The notes under the pieces are model-generated. The model did not search any database. It was not told the DNA's origin and saw nothing but the letters and a program-made list of their open reading frames with translations. 64,000 nt of DNA from a phage. The position numbers and the translations under genes were made by a program. The stretch is from sequence record PX880099.1; one strand, 5' to 3'. How positions within the stretch are numbered: position 1 is the stretch's first letter; the number at the start of each line of letters is the position of its first letter. Positions 13,934 through 64,000 of this stretch are shown here, one piece after another.

Positions 13934-14212
13934 TTAAAATGGTTCGTTAGTCTCCATCATATATTCTGCTTCTAGTTCTTCCATGTGCTTTCTAAATTGG
14001 AAAGCAATTTCTGCTACAGTTACATTTAAATCTTTTTCAAAAACTTCTGTAGATCCTTCATAAAAACGAATACCGTCAATTAAAAGCCCTCCGTGGTAAT
14101 CCCAATCGCTTTCACGAGAAAGTGGATTAGGTTCTTCATAATAGTAATCCACCTCCACGACCAAGGCTTTCCCGTTACGAGTGGTGTATTCAAAATCAAA
14201 AGTGTTAATCAT
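13934..14212 (-). CDS. hypothetical protein
   Basis: 92 aa; ATGA-type overlap with downstream gene. Confidence 0.5.
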   Translation of the reverse strand: MINTFDFEYTTRNGKALVVEVDYYYEEPNPLSRESDWDYHGGLLIDGIRFYEGSTEVFEKDLNVTVAEIAFQFRKHMEELEAEYMMETNEPF

Positions 14213-15156
14213 TATAGCTCCTCAAATAAAAGTCTACGACGCTCATTCAACACATCAATGTGATAATGAGTCCTGACATACTTAGCTAATGCTAATCCTT
14301 TCTCCATGCAAACATCGGGAGCACTTAATAAGTATTCCGTAATATCTTTCCACTCGGAAGGTGTTTCAGCAAAGAATAACAAATCTTTAAACTCTTGTGT
14401 ATGATAATTCTCACGAGGAGAGCAGATTAAAGGTAAACCCTTAGCACCCGCCTCAAGAATTTTAAGATTGCTTTTTGCATTATTAAACACGTTATCGATC
14501 AATGGTGCAAGACTGATTTGATGACCATCGTAAGATTCCATGTAGTTGGCATATGGTCTTACACCTTCATAAACACAAGTTGGTGCTACATTTTCTCTGA
14601 TTAAAGACCATTCACGACTACTTAAAACTTCAGAATCCCTACGAAAACCACATATTGTAAGATCTTTACCAAAATCGGGCAAGATAGCCAAATCTTGTTT
14701 ATGTGTTTCACTTCCAGCCCAGACTAATGGAGTTTTGGAGTAGCGATCACGGGTCAACACAAATTGACCTTCATCGTAAGGAAGTCCATTAGGGATTATG
14801 TGCACATTATCATTGTATTGTGAAAGTTCAACTTGCAAGGCAGGTGTCGTAGTTGTAACAAGATCACTGTGCTCTAAAAACCATTTTAAATGTTCACGAA
14901 TACCTGATTCAAAAATACCTTCTAACATGTGTCCTTTTGGAATAACTAAAGAGTCATCCAAATCCATAACCATTTTAAAGCCTAGGTTTTTAAGGGCTAA
15001 AAAGCCCTCTTTACCTTTTGTTGGCACTCCGTTAAAAACGAAAACGTTGTGTTTAGGTTGTGAAGAGAACTGCCTTGAGTAAGGCAGCACTACCCTATGG
15101 AAATCGCAGACACTATAATTGATTCCGTTACGATTGTCAAGAATTATTTGTCCCAT
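14212..15156 (-). CDS. putative glycosyltransferase, GT-B (family 1-like), paralog A
   Basis: C-terminal ILEAGAKGLPLICS..LLFFAETPSEW resembles GT1 C-terminal domain; paralogous to 15164-16111. Confidence 0.5.
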   Translation of the reverse strand: MGQIILDNRNGINYSVCDFHRVVLPYSRQFSSQPKHNVFVFNGVPTKGKEGFLALKNLGFKMVMDLDDSLVIPKGHMLEGIFESGIREHLKWFLEHSDLVTTTTPALQVELSQYNDNVHIIPNGLPYDEGQFVLTRDRYSKTPLVWAGSETHKQDLAILPDFGKDLTICGFRRDSEVLSSREWSLIRENVAPTCVYEGVRPYANYMESYDGHQISLAPLIDNVFNNAKSNLKILEAGAKGLPLICSPRENYHTQEFKDLLFFAETPSEWKDITEYLLSAPDVCMEKGLALAKYVRTHYHIDVLNERRRLLFEEL

Positions 15157-15163
15157 ACTTCAC

Positions 15164-16111
15164 CTACAAACTTTCAATAACCTGGCGTCGCAATTCGTTT
15201 GCATCTGCCAGATTATAATGTGTTCGAACATGTTCCGCTAAGAACAAGCCGCGATCTTCCCGATAGTTCGGATTACGAAGAAGCTTAACAATTTCGTAAT
15301 GCCATTCTGCTTTATTCTCTGCGTAAGCAACAGCGCGAGCATCTACAGGGTTAAAATAAGGTAATACCTTAGAACAAACAATCGGAATACCTTTTGCCCC
15401 AGCTTCAAGGATTTTGAGATTACTTTTACAATTATTAAAATCATTATCTACCAAAGGAGCTATAGCAATAGCATGACTTTCGTAAACACTCATGTAGTTA
15501 TCTAAATCTTTTACAGCAGCTTTATATTTGGCATTTGGTAAATTTCTACGGATCTTAATCCACTCTTGCCCTGTGATACTCTGCGAAGCTTCATACCCCG
15601 CAATAGTAAGAAGTTCATCATCAAAAGTATTAGAGACTAGTCGTAAATCGGGTTCGTGACTAGCACCGCCAGCCCATACAACAGGGGCACCGGATGAACG
15701 ATCATTTGACAAAGTGAATTGTCCGCTATCAAAAGGAAGTGCATTTCGGATCACAACAACATTCCTATTTAAGTGACGGATCTTATATGCCAAATATTCC
15801 GTAGTCACAATGACCACATCGGCAAGCTTAACCATAGCTACAATAGCATGAGTGTTTGACTCATATAAACTTGCTAAATAATGTTCTGGATTAAGTTGGT
15901 AGAAATCATCTAAATCTACAACAATCTTAACACCTTGACGTTTCAGGGACAGAACATATTCTGCCCCTTTAGAATGAATACGGTTAAACACGACAACATC
16001 TTTCTTAGGCTGAAAATTATTGTTGTTAAATGGTATAACAATACGATGATAATCACAACCACTGTGAGGTTTTGCATCAATTTTCAGTTTAGTCCATTTT
16101 TTATTTGACAT
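15164..16111 (-). CDS. putative glycosyltransferase, GT-B (family 1-like), paralog B
   Basis: Start moved to ATG with SD GAGGAGG (MSNKKW); C-terminus ILEAGAKGIPIVCS..VAYAENKAEW parallels neighbour. Confidence 0.5.
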   Translation of the reverse strand: MSNKKWTKLKIDAKPHSGCDYHRIVIPFNNNNFQPKKDVVVFNRIHSKGAEYVLSLKRQGVKIVVDLDDFYQLNPEHYLASLYESNTHAIVAMVKLADVVIVTTEYLAYKIRHLNRNVVVIRNALPFDSGQFTLSNDRSSGAPVVWAGGASHEPDLRLVSNTFDDELLTIAGYEASQSITGQEWIKIRRNLPNAKYKAAVKDLDNYMSVYESHAIAIAPLVDNDFNNCKSNLKILEAGAKGIPIVCSKVLPYFNPVDARAVAYAENKAEWHYEIVKLLRNPNYREDRGLFLAEHVRTHYNLADANELRRQVIESL

Positions 16112-16784
16112 GTGCCAGTGCCTCCTCATAAGAAATTCGGATTTTCCCATTTTTAATATCTTCTAAAGACGCTTTATATTCTTCCCAGTTAATGCCAATA
16201 GCAGCTTCTTTCTCTTCTTTTGTCAGATTAGCAAAAGGCATAGGATTATTTCCAAAAACATCGTCTGGGTGGATATAAGCCATGATACGAAGTGGACAAG
16301 GTATTGCCTGAATACCCTGATTCAAACCAGCAGCTTTCAAACGGTGTACCCATTCAGCATCTTCAAAACCATAGCCGTGAGTGTAAGGGCGGAAATAACC
16401 CATCTTCTCAACAACGGCACGAGAATACATTGCAAATTGACACATTGCAAGTTCCCAGAGAATAACTTCTCCTTTACTCCCAACAACTTTATCTTTGAAA
16501 TACTCCGGCATACCAAAGAAATCCCATCCTCCAGAGACAGCTTGATCTACAAAATATGTTTCCCATCCCTCCATGATTGGGTAGCAATCGTCGTCAAAAA
16601 TAAACCAATAATCATAACCTTCTTCATAAAACTGGTGCATAAGTTCATTCCTGGCATAAGCTACACCTTTACGATCTGGATCGTTGAATACTCGAAAATC
16701 TGCGTGTGGATCTGTTACAAGGTAGTCTTTAAGTGGACGGACACCTACAGTGATAACACCCACTCCGATTTTAATATTTTCCAT
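16101..16784 (-). CDS. putative glycosyltransferase, GT-A-like (DxD motif)
   Basis: FIFDDDCYP acidic motif after a hydrophobic strand. Confidence 0.45.
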   Translation of the reverse strand: MENIKIGVGVITVGVRPLKDYLVTDPHADFRVFNDPDRKGVAYARNELMHQFYEEGYDYWFIFDDDCYPIMEGWETYFVDQAVSGGWDFFGMPEYFKDKVVGSKGEVILWELAMCQFAMYSRAVVEKMGYFRPYTHGYGFEDAEWVHRLKAAGLNQGIQAIPCPLRIMAYIHPDDVFGNNPMPFANLTKEEKEAAIGINWEEYKASLEDIKNGKIRISYEEALAHVK

Positions 16785-18678: not shown

Positions 18679-19281
18679 TTATGGACATTCATACCATTCT
18701 TTTTTACCACCGAAGGCCATCACCACATCGCAAATATCCAGACCAGCTTTACCTACACCATATGCTTTCAGTTTCCATTCCCCATCTTCACGAACCAAGG
18801 AAGCCACGTGGCAGATTGTGTTGCCAGCTACTTCAGGAGCCAGGAAGTCAAAATCCAGAATTTCCACATTGCGCTCGGAGTCGAAGATTTTAAGCATACC
18901 TTCAGAAGCATGACCAAAACGTTTCAGACCTGTATCATCATCAATGGTCAGAACAAAGGCAATCTCTTGTGCATCAGGAGAGATTTTAGCCAGAGTAATA
19001 TCAATCTGCTCCATGCTGCCAGTTCCATCACGAACATCGTCACCAGCGAAGGTAGAACGTTCAGGATCAAACTTGTTAGCATAGCAAACTAGATGACGTG
19101 CAGACAGCATTTCAGGATTGCCAGCGGCATTGTGACGACAAACCAGTGCACTTACATCCAGATCCAGTTTAGAATCAGATTTCCAAGAGAATTCCAGGCG
19201 CAGTTCTTTCAGAGCCGGAGCAACTTTCTTCAGGGAAATTTTTTCGCTAGAGCCTTTTTTCAGAGAAATTTTATCAGTCAT
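18679..19281 (-). CDS. TerD-family protein (tellurite-resistance/stress TerD domain)
   Basis: N-terminal KISLKK, LDLDVSALV and GDD..DG motifs typical of TerD; SD GGAGA before ATG. Confidence 0.75.
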   Translation of the reverse strand: MTDKISLKKGSSEKISLKKVAPALKELRLEFSWKSDSKLDLDVSALVCRHNAAGNPEMLSARHLVCYANKFDPERSTFAGDDVRDGTGSMEQIDITLAKISPDAQEIAFVLTIDDDTGLKRFGHASEGMLKIFDSERNVEILDFDFLAPEVAGNTICHVASLVREDGEWKLKAYGVGKAGLDICDVVMAFGGKKEWYECP

Positions 19282-19296: not shown

Positions 19297-19566
19297 TTAT
19301 TTAAGTGTAATACCAGTTACAGTCAATTCTACTTCCAAAAGCTTAGATGTGTTTTGGATTGCTACTAATTGTGCATGATGGTTTAGTTCTACAGCAGAAT
19401 AATCATTTTCCCCATCATCTACTTTTAAATAAACAATAACTTCACTAAGGTCTAAACCATTTTCGTCAAATGCATTTTCATAGACGAAAGTATCTCCTAC
19501 ATCCAAATCTTTAATGGTAAGGCATCGTTTATTTACTTTTTGCTCATCAATTTCGAAGTTTAACAC
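19297..19566 (-). CDS. hypothetical protein, paralog of 20588-20866
   Basis: Shares GDTF..Y..A.DE.GLD and C-terminal E.EL.VT.ITLK with the paralog. Confidence 0.5.
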   Translation of the reverse strand: MLNFEIDEQKVNKRCLTIKDLDVGDTFVYENAFDENGLDLSEVIVYLKVDDGENDYSAVELNHHAQLVAIQNTSKLLEVELTVTGITLK

Positions 19567-19795
19567 TTCTTCCTCCTAATGTTATCTCCGGTTTGTATAT
19601 ACGAAGAATTATAGCATTTTCATTTTCTTTGTCAACCCATTCTTCATAATCGGGCCATACATGAATCTCTACTCTACTTACAATATCTTCCATCCGCACA
19701 GTCCCAATGAAATATTCTTTGAGACTGCGCATAATGAAAGCTTCTCTCTCGCGCCAATAATTTTCTACGACTTGAGAGGCAAGCTCGTCGATCAT
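19547..19795 (-). CDS. hypothetical protein
   Basis: 82 aa ORF in co-oriented block. Confidence 0.45.
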   Translation of the reverse strand: MIDELASQVVENYWREREAFIMRSLKEYFIGTVRMEDIVSRVEIHVWPDYEEWVDKENENAIILRIYKPEITLGGRSVKLRN

Positions 19796-20586
19796 TTTTT
19801 AGCACCTACCTTAACAACCCACTCTCCGAACTCTTCAGATAAGAGTTTGTCATAAAGCTCTGAATCTGTCAAGTCTAAATCTTTAATGCCAATAAAACCA
19901 ACATTGTCATAAGCATTTGCCAGTTCTTTCAGGAAGCTGAACTTCTCATTACCAACGCCAACCATGAACCAATAGATAGGCTTATTCTTATTCTCTTCAA
20001 TAAGACGACGAACAGCACTAGGATCACCATTCTCACCATCTGTCTGGAAGAATACAACACCAGGAGTAACGTCAGCACCTGGTTCAGATACAGCTACAAC
20101 TTTTTCACGCTCTACCGATACTGTTTCAGTTTTACCCAGCAGACGATTAAAGAAGCCTTTCTTTGGAGCCTCCTCTTGTACCACTTGTTTAGTGGTAACA
20201 TATTTGGTAACAGTGCCAAAATACTCATCGTAGATATCTGCCATTACAGGGGCGTAATTTGTTCCACCTCCGATACGAACATTACGCATACATTTACCAA
20301 CATAGTCATCGTAAACGTCTGCTGTTGCTGGAGTAAGCTCTTGAGAACTCGTATTGAAGGCCCACATGTCAATTTGTTCATTATCGTCGAACAGCATACC
20401 AAAAGGAAGCAGTTTGCCTACAAAATCACTCACTACCCCACGAGTATATAGACCATGCATACTACCAGAAATATCTAGAGCACATGCTACACGAAGAACA
20501 ATCTTACCTTCATTCAGGTTCTTATTCTTTTTCAGAGAGAAAGCAAGGTTTTCTTGACGTTTTTTCAGGCTGATTTTCTCGGACAT
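19792..20586 (-). CDS. TerD-like N-terminus plus vWA-domain protein (TerY/TerF-like)
   Basis: N-terminal KISLKK as in TerD; ALDISGSM fits a vWA MIDAS DxSxS motif. Confidence 0.55.
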   Translation of the reverse strand: MSEKISLKKRQENLAFSLKKNKNLNEGKIVLRVACALDISGSMHGLYTRGVVSDFVGKLLPFGMLFDDNEQIDMWAFNTSSQELTPATADVYDDYVGKCMRNVRIGGGTNYAPVMADIYDEYFGTVTKYVTTKQVVQEEAPKKGFFNRLLGKTETVSVEREKVVAVSEPGADVTPGVVFFQTDGENGDPSAVRRLIEENKNKPIYWFMVGVGNEKFSFLKELANAYDNVGFIGIKDLDLTDSELYDKLLSEEFGEWVVKVGAKK

Positions 20587-57550: not shown

Positions 57551-57580
57551 TAAATAGGGCTTGCAATAGTCCTATTTTTT
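57551..57580 (+). terminator. terminator-like hairpin with T6 run
   Basis: TAGGGC-ttgcaata-GTCCTA imperfect stem followed by TTTTTTG. Confidence 0.4.
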
Positions 57581-57719: not shown

Positions 57720-57778
57720 TTGACACCGGATCACGCTTACATTATTATTTATCACGTAGGGCGGGAATGTTTCCCGCC
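57720..57778 (+). promoter_or_regulatory. promoter plus 5' stem-loop cassette 22
   Basis: TTGACA, AT-rich -10 region, TTATCAC, then GGCGGGAA-tgt-TTCCCGCC perfect hairpin. Confidence 0.6.
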
Positions 57779-58536: not shown

Positions 58537-58571
58537 CCCCTATTGACAGGGGATCGGCGTTATATTATATT
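58537..58571 (+). promoter_or_regulatory. promoter with palindrome around the -35 (variant cassette 24, no 5' hairpin)
   Basis: TCCCCT-aTTGACA-GGGGA inverted repeat enclosing -35 TTGACA; 17 bp; TATATT. Confidence 0.5.
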
Positions 58572-59049: not shown

Positions 59050-59078
59050 AAGGGCGCACCAAGCGCCCTTTCTTTTTG
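59050..59078 (+). terminator. rho-independent terminator (module AAGGGCGCAYCAAGCGCCCTTT)
   Basis: AGGGCGC-accaa-GCGCCCT hairpin followed by TTCTTTTT. Confidence 0.75.
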
Positions 59079-60039
59079 CCCGAACAATATTGATAGCTTT
59101 CGCCTATGAAAAACCGACACAGAACAAAACTGAATAAATCGCGGTATCGAGCTAATCAACCAGCAAACGAATAACCATACCTCCCAGGGTTACAGGCTGT
59201 TAGAGAGCCATTTAGAGCGGTTAAAATCGATCAACAACCAACAACAAACCATCAAAAACACCCTTTTACCTCCTTTCTAGTGCAATGATAACCATTATCA
59301 TCTACCCATGATTATCTATGCAATATAAGCGCATAATTATAATGTTGATAATAGTTCGCAACAACTAACCAACAAACAACATAAAACAATAAGCAAACTA
59401 ATCATAATCAAAGGAATAATAGCAAGATGATTGATAACGACAAACAATCAAACCATGATGAATACTAAGCAAGATAACGATAACACGACAAAACAACCAA
59501 CTAACGAACAATAACAAACGAAACCATTAAAATAATAACTATTAGCAAAATAGTGCATGAATGAAATCATTACAAAACGAATCATTCATAGAGTCATCAT
59601 TAGCACGCTATGCCGGACACATAGCGAGCTAATAATAAGCCAACTACACCCCAACAATCATAACCATCGGTGATGGTTATTTCTTGTTACTGCGTAGCTT
59701 GCAATAATTGCAAGCGTAATGACGCTTACACTTATTGCGCTGGCTTATTATTAGCATTATATGTAATTACCAAGATCATAACATTAGCGCAATAACAATA
59801 ATCATTGTGGTAATTACGTAAGGAAACAATTAGCATGGCAATAATTATGGGGGCAATGGGAGGATGATTATCATCATTCCGATACATTGCACACTATGCA
59901 CATAATAGAATAAAAAGCAATAATTTTGGGGGCGAAATGTTACCGCCACAGGCGGGAATGTTGAGCAAGTTCTCTTAAACGTAAATAAAATCAGAATAAT
60001 CTTGATTTATTTTAGTTTTTATGTTAATAAACGTTTAAA

Positions 60040-60054
60040 TAATAATCATTCTCA
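60040..60054. promoter_or_regulatory. Fur-box-like palindrome
   Basis: TaATAATcATTcTCA, two mismatches to 7-1-7 consensus TGATAATnATTATCA. Confidence 0.3.
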
Positions 60055-60215
60055 TATAAATAATAGTCTGCTTGTCATGAGCGGGATTAGTTGACAATGT
60101 TCCGTCATATGATGAGGTTGCCAAGCCATTGATAAATAAGTGTTTGTGTGATTTATAATCAGGTGGCCCACCTTGTCGCTATGTTGGCATGAGCCTTGCA
60201 TAAGTCATTGAATAC

Positions 60216-60236
60216 GAATGATAATTATTCTCATTC
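60216..60236. promoter_or_regulatory. Fur-box-like palindrome (best match in window)
   Basis: TGATAATtATTcTCA, one mismatch to consensus; embedded in larger palindrome CGAATGA..TCATTCG. Confidence 0.35.
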
Positions 60237-60576
60237 GCATGATATTTGGGAATTGTCGCTGCGTGGACCTGACGGCCCGAAAATTCGCGTTAAGCACTTC
60301 TTACGTATGCACCATGATTTTTGCCATATCATATTGATTCTATTAGATATTCTTGCCATGATTGCCATGAAACAGGGTGTCCCGAAATAATCTCTCCCCG
60401 TAGATATTTTGGGTTACTTTTTATACAAGAGTGGGGTGTCAAAAATAATCGGTATATATGGGATAATTGATAGGAATCCCCTATGATAATTCGATTGTAA
60501 TTCCCTAAGATTGATCGTATGATGTTGGTGATTAATGATTGCCATGAAAGATGGCTAACGATGAGAGGAGATTATC

Positions 60577-61000: not shown

Positions 61001-61210
61001 ATGAAGAATTTGAAAACTGTCACAATGTTCTTGACTAATCCTACACGTGTGCAAGCACTGGCTAAAGCCAGCCGTGTAGCTGTAGAATTCCAAAACTTTA
61101 AGCCGTCCGTTGTGACAGGCAGTGAAACGTGTGTTATCGATTTCATTAACGAATACTTCCGAGGGAATCCGGTTGGTCGTTACTTTATTAAGGGTCTGAA
61201 GGATGCATAG
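61001..61210 (+). CDS. hypothetical small protein
   Basis: 69 aa; SD GAGGAGA before ATG. Confidence 0.5.
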   Translation: MKNLKTVTMFLTNPTRVQALAKASRVAVEFQNFKPSVVTGSETCVIDFINEYFRGNPVGRYFIKGLKDA

Positions 61211-61433
61211 CATGAAACGCATGAAAATTCGTATTGAGAATGATGGTGGTTATAAAGGACTTACCCGTGCAAAATTCCCACTTGTGTTGGAAGCTACGGT
61301 GGAATACAGTGGGCTTGCTCATGTGCGATTCTCGAAGATGATGGAAGTGCAGGAATGGTTTTGGGACGAGATAGATGCACGAGAAGGGGAAGATTATGTT
61401 TTCTTTCCTCACGAATATGAAATTGTTTATTAA
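61203..61433 (+). CDS. hypothetical small protein
   Basis: 76 aa; 8-nt overlap with upstream gene. Confidence 0.5.
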   Translation: MHSMKRMKIRIENDGGYKGLTRAKFPLVLEATVEYSGLAHVRFSKMMEVQEWFWDEIDAREGEDYVFFPHEYEIVY

Positions 61434-61685: not shown

Positions 61686-62143
61686 GACAATTCACTATAC
61701 TGGCAGCTTATGTGCAATGTGTTCACGATTATGTTAGTGCTCATACAGGTTTGCTGGAAGTTACCAGTAAAATTGAAGGTAATATGGGTACTGTCTGTGT
61801 GCAACATACTTTATCCAATGTGCCGTTTAAAGTGTTCACTGTTGTAGCTGCCGATTACAATCGTGTAGATGTGCGTTTCTTGGATCATAATTTTCGTAAC
61901 GCACTAGATAATATCGAAGATTATCTTCCCGTGAAACCTTTGTCATTTCCACCAAGTCGTGCAAATAATGTAGTGACAAATCTTAATGAAAGAAATGTGG
62001 CTATGCACAAAAAAGTCCGTCAACTGAAAATGCTGATGGAAATGCAAGAAGAGATTGAAAAAGAACTGAAAGAAGATTTTGGTATGCTTCCAAAAGACGC
62101 TTTGAAATGGTATGATGAACTAGGAGGAGAAAGTTATGAATAA
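61682..62143 (+). CDS. hypothetical protein
   Basis: 153 aa; ATGA overlap; SD GGAGG before ATG. Confidence 0.5.
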   Translation: MRQFTILAAYVQCVHDYVSAHTGLLEVTSKIEGNMGTVCVQHTLSNVPFKVFTVVAADYNRVDVRFLDHNFRNALDNIEDYLPVKPLSFPPSRANNVVTNLNERNVAMHKKVRQLKMLMEMQEEIEKELKEDFGMLPKDALKWYDELGGESYE

Positions 62144-62330
62144 AGGAACTACTGTATATTTAGTGACTAAGAACACCCCAGGTTGGAATCAGTGCACAAC
62201 GACTCCATATAAGATTTGTGCAACACTGGAACTAGCACAACGTGCAGAAGCGGAAGTTGATGCTATGCGATACAGCTACGGGGAGATCATTCCTTTCACT
62301 CTGGAACAAGAAGGAGCACATAGTGTTTAA
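62136..62330 (+). CDS. hypothetical small protein
   Basis: 64 aa; SD GGAGGAGAAAG before ATG. Confidence 0.5.
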   Translation: MNKGTTVYLVTKNTPGWNQCTTTPYKICATLELAQRAEAEVDAMRYSYGEIIPFTLEQEGAHSV

Positions 62331-62778
62331 GGTAGGGTTTACTTATAAATTCAAAAGCGTTGCTGACCAAGGAGATATGGCAACACATGACAAAGCAAAT
62401 ATTGCTGTTTGCCAAGCGATTGGAAACGAAGTTTTCAAAGTTATGAATACAGATGATAAGTATGGTCATGTTCTTGAGTTTTATATCAATGGTACCCTCT
62501 ATACAGCAGGTGTTACCCCAGGGTTTAATTCGTATACTTATTTGATTGATAACGAAGAATTTAAATATTTTGAAGAAGTAAAGGAGGAAACAATGGGTAA
62601 AGCAGAACCACAATGGCATGTTGTGATCGTAGGATCAGAGTGTGTAGATGTTTGTTCTAGTTTTGAAAAAGCTTCTGAAGTCGCTACAAAAGCTAAGAAG
62701 GACTATCCGTCGAAGACGGTTGAGATTTACGCTCGTGTTGCAGTAGCAAACGCCACAATCACTATTGATAAGGAGTAA
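62323..62778 (+). CDS. hypothetical protein, paralog family member 1
   Basis: Start set at GTG after SD AAGGAG, giving FKVGFTYKFKS parallel to paralogs; shared C-terminal ..YP.KTVEIY.. Confidence 0.5.
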   Translation: MFKVGFTYKFKSVADQGDMATHDKANIAVCQAIGNEVFKVMNTDDKYGHVLEFYINGTLYTAGVTPGFNSYTYLIDNEEFKYFEEVKEETMGKAEPQWHVVIVGSECVDVCSSFEKASEVATKAKKDYPSKTVEIYARVAVANATITIDKE

Positions 62779-62783
62779 AGCCA

Positions 62784-63242
62784 ATGTTCAAAGAAGGTCA
62801 TGTCTACCGTTTCCAGGATGAGGATTATATGCGACTATATTCTACCTTTGATAACAGTATTGCGGCTATCATTGGAGAGAATTTTTTCGAGGTGTTGAGC
62901 ACTGATGCAAATGGTAATATCTTGTCAATGGTTGTAATAGGTATGAGAGATGGTATTATCACTGCTGGTGATGGGGATCGTTACATAATCAATTCTGCTC
63001 ATATAGATTATTTTGTTGACGGTGGTGTTCGTGGTGGTCGTGGAAAACCCCAAGAAGAACCTGTTGATACGACAAAAGAAGAGTGGTATGTTGTAATGAC
63101 TGATGACACCTGTATTTCTGGATTTGAAAGTTATGAAGAAGCTTTGAAAGAAGCAGCAGAGCATAAAATGGCTAATCCTACAGAAGAGGTTGAAGTTTAT
63201 AAACGTCTGGTTGTTGCTACCATCGGCGTATCTTTTGTTTAA
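62784..63242 (+). CDS. hypothetical protein, paralog family member 2
   Basis: N-terminal MFKEGHVYRF and C-terminal PTEEVEVYKRLV parallel the neighbours; SD AAGGAG. Confidence 0.55.
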   Translation: MFKEGHVYRFQDEDYMRLYSTFDNSIAAIIGENFFEVLSTDANGNILSMVVIGMRDGIITAGDGDRYIINSAHIDYFVDGGVRGGRGKPQEEPVDTTKEEWYVVMTDDTCISGFESYEEALKEAAEHKMANPTEEVEVYKRLVVATIGVSFV

Positions 63243-63254
63243 AAGGGGAATGTT

Positions 63255-64000
63255 ATGTTTAAAGTAGGTTTTGTTTATAATTTCAAATCGGAAGATACCA
63301 AAAAGAATTTTGGTAAAGCTAGTATTCGTAACGCTTTCTTTGTAGGTTGCATTCAAGATAGCAAGTTTAAAGTTTTAGATGTTGATTTTCTAGGTTCTGT
63401 GTCAAAGGTGAAGGTATTAGACACAAATAAGATCATCGAAGGTAGTTCTGGGCTTTTTCCTGAAGGCTATAAGCTTGTAAGTTGTATAGATTATAGTCGT
63501 TTTGAAGAACATCCTCCTGAAGATTATGAGGATTCTCCTACAGGAGGTTGTGTCTTTGTAGAAGGTGGTGTCTATAAGTTTGCAAGTGAACAAGATCGTA
63601 AGCTTTTCGCCAATTATATTGACGGCGGACAAACGACAAACAATGTAAACCGAAAAATTTCCGATCTTATTGGAGATGATCCTTTCGTGATCACAAAGAT
63701 GGTTGGACAAGATGTAACAGCAATCCGTAGGCTTGTATGTAATACAAATCATGTAGCAGGTGAAGGTTGGTTCAAAGAAGCTTGTGCACTGCTAATCAAA
63801 AGCGATAACCCTTACTTTAAAAATATTAAAAATGCTGTTGAGCCTAAACAAGAGGAACCCGCAGCGAATTTTAAACACTATGCTATTGTTAAAGGTATGA
63901 ATGTCCAACTGGTGTCACATTCTTACGAAGAGATCGCCACAGAAGCAAAAAAGATGAAGGAAGAATACCCAATTTCTACTGTTGAGATCTATGAGCGTAT
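63255..64000 (+). CDS. hypothetical protein, paralog family member 3 (3' end outside window)
   Basis: ATG after SD AAAGGGGAA; N-terminal MFKVGFVYNFKS matches paralogs; frame open to window end. Confidence 0.5.
   Translation, partial: MFKVGFVYNFKSEDTKKNFGKASIRNAFFVGCIQDSKFKVLDVDFLGSVSKVKVLDTNKIIEGSSGLFPEGYKLVSCIDYSRFEEHPPEDYEDSPTGGCVFVEGGVYKFASEQDRKLFANYIDGGQTTNNVNRKISDLIGDDPFVITKMVGQDVTAIRRLVCNTNHVAGEGWFKEACALLIKSDNPYFKNIKNAVEPKQEEPAANFKHYAIVKGMNVQLVSHSYEEIATEAKKMKEEYPISTVEIYER

Follow-up and report, generated by a model that had tools for sequence, protein, structure and literature searches.

A tandem array of small, acidic GoF-like proteins in phAPEC8-like phages

GoF remained an unsolved gene of phage T4 for decades. 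Together with Frd.2 and MotB.1 it was grouped only in 2025 into a family with an 'LSm-like fold', defined for the Tevenvirinae alone (Kim et al. 2025, PMC12152347). GoF is early, abundant and non-essential, and both GoF and MotB.1 run as monomer plus dimer. The variant GoF(D25Y) raises mRNA half-life, and goF mutants stabilise gene 41 mRNA and suppress host rho defects (PMC12152347). The phAPEC8-like phages go unmentioned in that work. Here we describe a tandem array of paralogous genes, g1 to g3, at the end of a 64,000-nucleotide stretch of phage DNA (record PX880099.1; the whole stretch is called the window). The array is effectively a subfamily of the GoF/Frd.2 phage family outside the Tevenvirinae.

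Phapecoctavirus, of the subfamily Stephanstirmvirinae, comprises phAPEC8-like Escherichia coli myophages with genomes of about 150 kb. Over its final 3 kb the window matches Phapecoctavirus genomes, among them ECO340P1, ESCO37 and ESCO13, at 96-98% identity. Genes under these matches are annotated 'hypothetical protein', save for occasional automated 'goF mRNA metabolism modulator' labels, which g2 or g3 already carries in some GenBank records. The window end cuts g3 (Table 1). The complete gene encodes 261 amino acids (aa) in relatives such as ECO340P1 (L001 6822-7607), and its final 13 codons are absent from the window. Beyond the window end a fourth paralog, g4 (145 aa), starts 10 nt after g3 in ECO340P1 (L001 7617-8054). 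The four genes read N-C, N-C, N-N-C and N-X, where N is a barrel domain, C a shared C-terminal domain and X an unrelated C-terminus: g3 is an N-N-C fusion and g4 a barrel followed by an unrelated C-terminus. The array of the window phage thus holds five barrels from four genes. We hold this identity and architecture, GoF-type barrels joined by linkers to C-modules, with high confidence. The double barrel in g3, the g4 paralog and the GoF/Frd.2 identity of the N-domain were all absent from an earlier, preliminary description of this DNA.

That description had placed a three-gene tandem family at the end of the window, and the placement is exact. By BLASTP, g1 and g2 align over their full length (E 2e-13, 26% identity across 156 aa), g1 matches residues 100-257 of g3 (E 3e-6), g2 matches g3 (E 7e-4), and g3 residues 1-64 match g4 (41% identity, E 1e-7). 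Pairwise Smith-Waterman comparison of g1 to g3, set against 1000 shuffles, gave z = 22, 13 and 9, and none of the 1000 shuffles reached the observed score. The three are true paralogs. Each carries the N-terminal motif that had been described, (M)FKVGFTYKF in g1, MFKEGHVYRF in g2 and MFKVGFVYNF in g3, and the C-terminal one, YPSKTVEIYARVAV, NPTEEVEVYKRLVV and YPISTVEIYER, respectively. The same description set these motifs around divergent middles. The motifs stand, but the middles are not unrelated. With both end motifs trimmed, g1 and g2 still align at z = 13.6, so the homology runs through the middle and is neither confined to the ends nor a product of low complexity. A likeness limited to low-complexity segments, which had been named as fatal to the family, is thus contradicted by the alignment. 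What had looked divergent is a homologous domain that can be aligned, followed by a linker of variable length. Searches with hidden Markov models (HMMs) of the N and C halves found g1 to g3 and no further family member in the window. The 13 kb of flanking sequence in relatives held no member besides g4, which the HMM recovered at E ~1e-16 though it was absent from the model.

AlphaFold2 (AF2) predicts two domains in g1, with a low-confidence linker between them (mean predicted local distance difference test score, pLDDT, 84.5). The N-domain is modelled as a five-stranded SH3/LSm-like beta-barrel of about 85 aa. In g1 its strands span residues 6-9, 37-42, 49-54, 57-60 and 82-85, and a pair of helices stands between the first strand and the second. 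C-terminal to the barrel come a disordered linker (88-94), then the beta-beta-alpha-beta domain (97-137), and last a tail modelled at low confidence. The full-length g3 protein (P0036; pLDDT 81.9) is predicted as three domains like beads on a string, with disordered, low-pLDDT linkers at residues 92-97 and 198-204. It has two N-domain HMM matches, of which the first barrel, N-a, was not in the model and scored E 9e-12. Across the family the linker to the C-domain is disordered and acidic or proline-rich; that of g2 is composed of Gly, Arg, Pro and Glu.

Profile comparison links the N-domain to T4. A family profile of 21 sequences aligned with T4 GoF at an hhalign probability of 97.4% (E 1.3e-11) over 84 columns, covering GoF residues 4-88, and with Frd.2 at 79% (E 1.7e-5). 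When 1090 open reading frames (ORFs) from 127 kb of T4 were searched with the N-domain HMM, the first four ranks went to GoF (6.9e-12), Frd.2 (1.2e-4), MobD.1 (1.2e-3) and MotB.1 (0.069), and so included all three founders of the LSm-like fold family. By these profile matches the N-domain of g1 to g3 belongs to the T4 GoF/Frd.2 family, with GoF as a clear homolog and Frd.2 as a probable, more distant one. MobD.1 (NC_000866 57283-57828; matched residues 100-170), which ranks above MotB.1, is unlisted in PMC12152347 and may be a fourth T4 member.

The T4 family resembles the array in more than the barrel of about 85 aa, homologous to that of GoF and probably to that of Frd.2. Its proteins too follow a plan of N-domain, flexible linker and variable C-domain, and are small and acidic, encoded in non-essential blocks of small ORFs. 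They differ in lineage (Tevenvirinae as against the Stephanstirmvirinae, with Phapecoctavirus and also phi92 gp003, at ~30% identity) and in gene order: the three T4 genes are dispersed, whereas the present genes stand in tandem arrays of two to four that include an N-N-C fusion. The beta-beta-alpha-beta C-domain and its tail are a further difference, with no counterpart in the scanned 127 kb of T4 (best HMM match E 0.06).

Protein family databases agree in part. The family matches the unannotated PHROG families 3710, 622 and 5347 (also 5804) and, more weakly, three families labelled 'goF mRNA metabolism modulator' (1e-3 to 2e-6). PHROG 3710, in which the N-C subfamily is already clustered, is matched at full length by g2 (E 4e-34) and by the second barrel and C-domain of g3 (E 5e-41), but it carries no annotation, domain dissection or GoF link. 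Among named Pfam families only PF03197 (FRD2) is touched by several members: 5 of the 21 meet it in the barrel region, all below the gathering threshold (best E 0.007). Pfam DUF2782, DUF7336 and T4_Y13H had sub-threshold matches in one or two of the 21 members each and were not used. Word-indexed homolog searches reached close relatives only; the wider set comes from an exhaustive HMM profile search. That search returned 31 matches at E<=1e-3 among 1.84 billion representative proteins. The family is phage-restricted, and most of the 31 are proteins of 140-170 aa with the same N-C plan.

A PDB sequence search with g1 gave no significant match, and Foldseek against the PDB gave nothing at E < 0.4. 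The closest solved structures are FeoA and the C-terminal SH3-like domain of DtxR/IdeR, the same PDB neighbours as for the T4 family. The likeness is of fold only, at 5-15% identity and with no metal-binding His cluster. These neighbours, the bent, five-stranded antiparallel N-terminal sheet and the domain plan are what characterises the LSm-like fold family. The small bent sheet is shared with Hfq and the Sm/LSm proteins, and the family owes its published name to it. One could suppose that the proteins are genuine Hfq-like RNA chaperones, with barrels that form rings of the Sm type and make direct contact with RNAs of phage or host; the longer mRNA half-life with GoF(D25Y) would fit (PMC12152347). 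Charge, topology and structural neighbours disfavour this. The N-terminal helix followed by five strands, the basic RNA-binding surface and the ring oligomers of Hfq and Sm/LSm proteins were not found, and we consider RNA chaperones of this kind decidedly improbable.

The C-domain is a minimal alpha/beta module of about 45 aa (beta-beta-alpha-beta) with a conserved hydrophobic tail. Conservation falls on a Lys, a Pro, a V-E-I-Y strand and a T/V-A-x-x-x-V tail, which suggests a surface for packing or docking and not a catalytic site. That the module mimics the ClpS core, docks on ClpA and redirects host proteolysis was considered. Sequence or profile similarity to ClpS together with coverage of the whole ClpS core was not found, and such an adaptor, rejected at the sequence level, is extremely unlikely.

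Counts over about 75-82 related phage records placed g1 in 24, g2 in 54-60 and g3 in 17-19, at >=95% identity wherever present. An upstream 153-aa gene had matches in 75 records, 38 of them at >=80% coverage. The three genes are accessory: their presence varies among otherwise near-identical phages. Junction alignments indicate how the variants in Table 1 arose. For ESCO13 they place the crossover in the region of the ribosome-binding site (RBS) and start, and the 64-aa gene and g1 are gained or lost as one module. In ASO2A, sequence upstream of g3 and its first codons are joined to the body of g4, with the crossover in the paralogous starts TTATGTTYAAAG. The hybrid of phAPEC8 (P0037, phAPEC8_0024) has its crossover in a linker microhomology with the consensus CAAGA(A/G)GAACC. 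Two database proteins, P0004 and P0009, combine the g1 barrel with differing C-domains. By these comparisons, the array evolves through short-homology recombination at conserved gene starts and linkers. In a separate 141-aa protein from a 1.3-kb contig (P0008), the last ~90 residues of g3 (63730-64000) follow the N-terminal part of a homolog of the 76-aa upstream gene at 61203-61433, with an EWF/GWF motif as the joint; it implies a deletion variant of ~2.4 kb that removes five genes.

The genes had also been described as diversifying, with variable centres. Their accessory status is borne out by the presence counts; their diversification is not. Nei-Gojobori ratios of non-synonymous to synonymous rates (dN/dS), computed pairwise over orthologs that are >=95% identical in DNA and therefore on small substitution counts, were 0-0.26 in 14 of 15 pairs, and the remaining g1 pair, at 0.52, involves three substitutions. 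Between the window and ECO340P1, g3 shows 22 synonymous and 10 non-synonymous differences, a ratio of 0.11. The orthologs thus appear to be under purifying selection. The supposed variable centre is the rest of the conserved barrel plus the linker, and variation in the array comes from gene loss, gain and fusion by recombination rather than from sequence diversification.

Tandem arrangement seems a recurrent property of the N-C subfamily. N-C triplets lie in a metagenomic phAPEC8-like contig (L011 1760-3172), where g2, an outgroup type and g3 are the loose counterparts of the three genes, and on a T4-like contig (L012 3557-4882), between a 30.3-like gene and DNA ligase. A rough neighbour-joining tree of the paralogs, with long branches, suggests at low confidence that the phAPEC8-lineage paralogs are old and that the T4-like triplet expanded separately.

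T4 Imm and Sp and T5 Llp are examples of exclusion or receptor-blocking proteins that act at the envelope. The preliminary description had named receptor-blocking and superinfection-exclusion proteins, beside anti-defence ones, among the diversifying accessory genes for which such arrays are typical. An accessory region with tandem paralogs, whose number differs from one relative to the next, would suit a role at the envelope. The proteins themselves do not. All of g1 to g4 are acidic (isoelectric points 4.4-5.7) and soluble; the grand average of hydropathy is negative for g1 to g3 and slightly positive (+0.10) for g4. A simple hydrophobic-run scan, made with no dedicated predictor, met no stretch of >=10 hydrophobic residues in g1 to g4, and so no sign of a signal peptide, lipobox or transmembrane segment. 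The low dN/dS, the conserved fold that makes up the 'variable centre' and the homology of the N-domain to cytoplasmic T4 GoF argue against it as well. A site of action at the envelope is very unlikely.

Anti-defence activity deserves more weight. Here the genes would encode small early inhibitors, each directed at a different host immunity protein, and host-specific selection would explain their presence and absence. This agrees with proteins that are small, acidic and soluble, with accessory genes that vary between phages at least 95% identical, with a location in a presumed early block of ORFans and with a phage-restricted family. No likeness to a characterised inhibitor was seen, in searches that included no anti-defence library, and the PDB offered nothing significant by sequence or by Foldseek. 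Orthologs show purifying rather than arms-race evolution, and the one characterised relative, GoF, is tied to RNA metabolism and rho rather than to defence. We regard anti-defence as plausible but unlikely.

On balance, the best explanation is that the locus is probably a GoF-like tandem array of small acidic cytoplasmic proteins with a role in host takeover. The proteins would be dispensable factors that work as binders and not as enzymes; natural variants without g1 or g3, or with the hybrid only, imply that the array genes are non-essential. How they might act can be proposed tentatively, by analogy. The barrel would be the module for target recognition and specificity. Its target may lie in host RNA metabolism, as goF genetics would suggest, and because the domains are acidic the partner is more likely a protein than RNA. 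The shared C-domain and tail form a putative common oligomerisation or docking module, and different paralogs would thus bring different barrels to the same place.

Several findings weigh against this picture. The family profile had no significant match to MotB.1 (hhalign 7%, E 0.005), and g1 scores 15.4 bits against PF03197, where the cutoff is 29, and so falls outside the Pfam family. In an RNA reporter assay, neither GoF nor MotB.1 showed an effect as the wild-type protein (PMC12152347). For the C-terminal tail, whose part in oligomerisation is putative, the models of single g1 and g3 chains give low pLDDT. Early expression of the small-ORF block is presumed from its position.

A bolder version of the proposal, which we judge improbable, makes the C-domain and hydrophobic tail a hetero-oligomerisation module through which co-transcribed paralogs form mixed, multivalent particles that display different barrels. 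If true, the mixed particle would be a combinatorial phage adaptor that holds several host targets at once, such as Rho, the RNA degradosome or immunity proteins, and phages would exchange barrels and C-domains in new combinations through recombination at starts and linkers.

Whatever its mode of action, the array places the GoF-type barrel in a further, unrelated group of large E. coli myophages, coupled there to a distinct conserved C-module. Natural four-gene (ESCO37), three-gene and hybrid-only variants are ready material for functional comparison. The value is twofold: annotation improves, with 'GoF-like N-terminal domain' in place of 'hypothetical protein', and the locus offers a tractable system for comparison; current understanding is not overturned.

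Table 1. Genes, protein parts, crossover sites and variant arrays of the GoF-like locus (window positions)
Feature	Position	Strand	Extent and basis
64-aa gene	62136-62330	+	stop overlaps g1 start; PHROG 24303, function unannotated
g1	62323-62778	+	151 aa, GTG start; ORF and translation, annotated coding sequence in relatives
g1 barrel	62323-62580	+	aa 1-86; AF2, HMM
g1 linker		+	aa 87-95; AF2, HMM
g1 C-domain	62608-62736	+	aa 96-138; AF2, HMM
g1 tail		+	aa 139-151; AF2, HMM
g2	62784-63242	+	152 aa; ORF and translation
g2 barrel	62784-63020	+	aa 1-79; alignments
g2 linker	63021-63077	+	aa 80-98; alignments
g2 C-domain and tail	63078-63239	+	aa 99-152; alignments
g2 linker microhomology CAAGAAGAACC	63051-63061	+	crossover point of the phAPEC8 g2-N/g3-C hybrid; junction alignment
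g3 RBS and ATGTTTAAAG start	63243-63265	+	crossover site with the equivalent g4 start in g3-less phages (ASO2A); junction alignment
g3	63255-64000	+	cut by window end, 248 of 261 codons present; translation
g3 barrel N-a	63255-63527	+	aa 1-91; HMM, AF2
g3 barrel N-b	63552-63839	+	aa 100-195; HMM, AF2
g3 linker microhomology CAAGAGGAACC	63849-63859	+	partner site of the phAPEC8 hybrid crossover; junction alignment
g3 C-domain	from 63870	+	from aa 206; HMM, AF2
ESCO13 array			without the 64-aa gene and g1, exactly these two
ASO2A array			without g3
phAPEC8 array			single hybrid (g2 barrel and g3 C-domain), then g4

The start codon of g1 is ATG in ECO340P1, ESCO37 and ASO2A, as against GTG in the window phage, and GAAGGAG lies 7 nt 5' of it. 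Its overlap with the stop of the 64-aa gene (GTGTTTAA) suggests translational coupling. From 60577 onward small ORFs follow one another closely on the same strand, and the three genes are part of this run. Their operon neighbours have no Pfam match, and the PHROG matches of these neighbours are all of 'unknown function'. Such a layout is typical of early host-takeover regions. Scans for tRNA and structured RNA (Rfam) found none at or around the locus, nor in the ORF-free gap that precedes the run, where repeats are short and unremarkable. This gap (59100-60570), AT-rich and ~1.5 kb long, lies between a hairpin terminator and the small-ORF run. Several GenBank records of relatives begin inside it (position 1 of ESCO37 corresponds to about window position 59889), and it might be a regulatory region or the place of a physical end of the genome. 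Further upstream are two near-perfect sigma-70 promoters on the + strand, at 57720-57748 (TTGACA-17-TATTAT) and 58543-58571 (TTGACA-17-TATATT), each preceding one or two small genes of unannotated function. A hairpin terminator follows each unit (terminators at 57552-57577 and 59050-59070), and the two look like strong early transcription units of the host polymerase.

Two other local duplications had been reported elsewhere in the window. That at 14212/15164 is real (41% identity, E 1e-76): the genes at 14212-15156 and 15164-16150, both on the - strand, are adjacent glycosyltransferase-like paralogs with weak matches to Pfam Glyco_trans_1_2/1_4. The pair at 19297/20588 has only a short N-terminal SEKISLKK motif in common (E 0.004). 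It corresponds to a TerD-domain protein (18679-19281, -) and a vWA-TerF-like protein (19792-20586, -), which are not true duplicates and look like two parts of a phage-borne tellurite-resistance-like (Ter) set.

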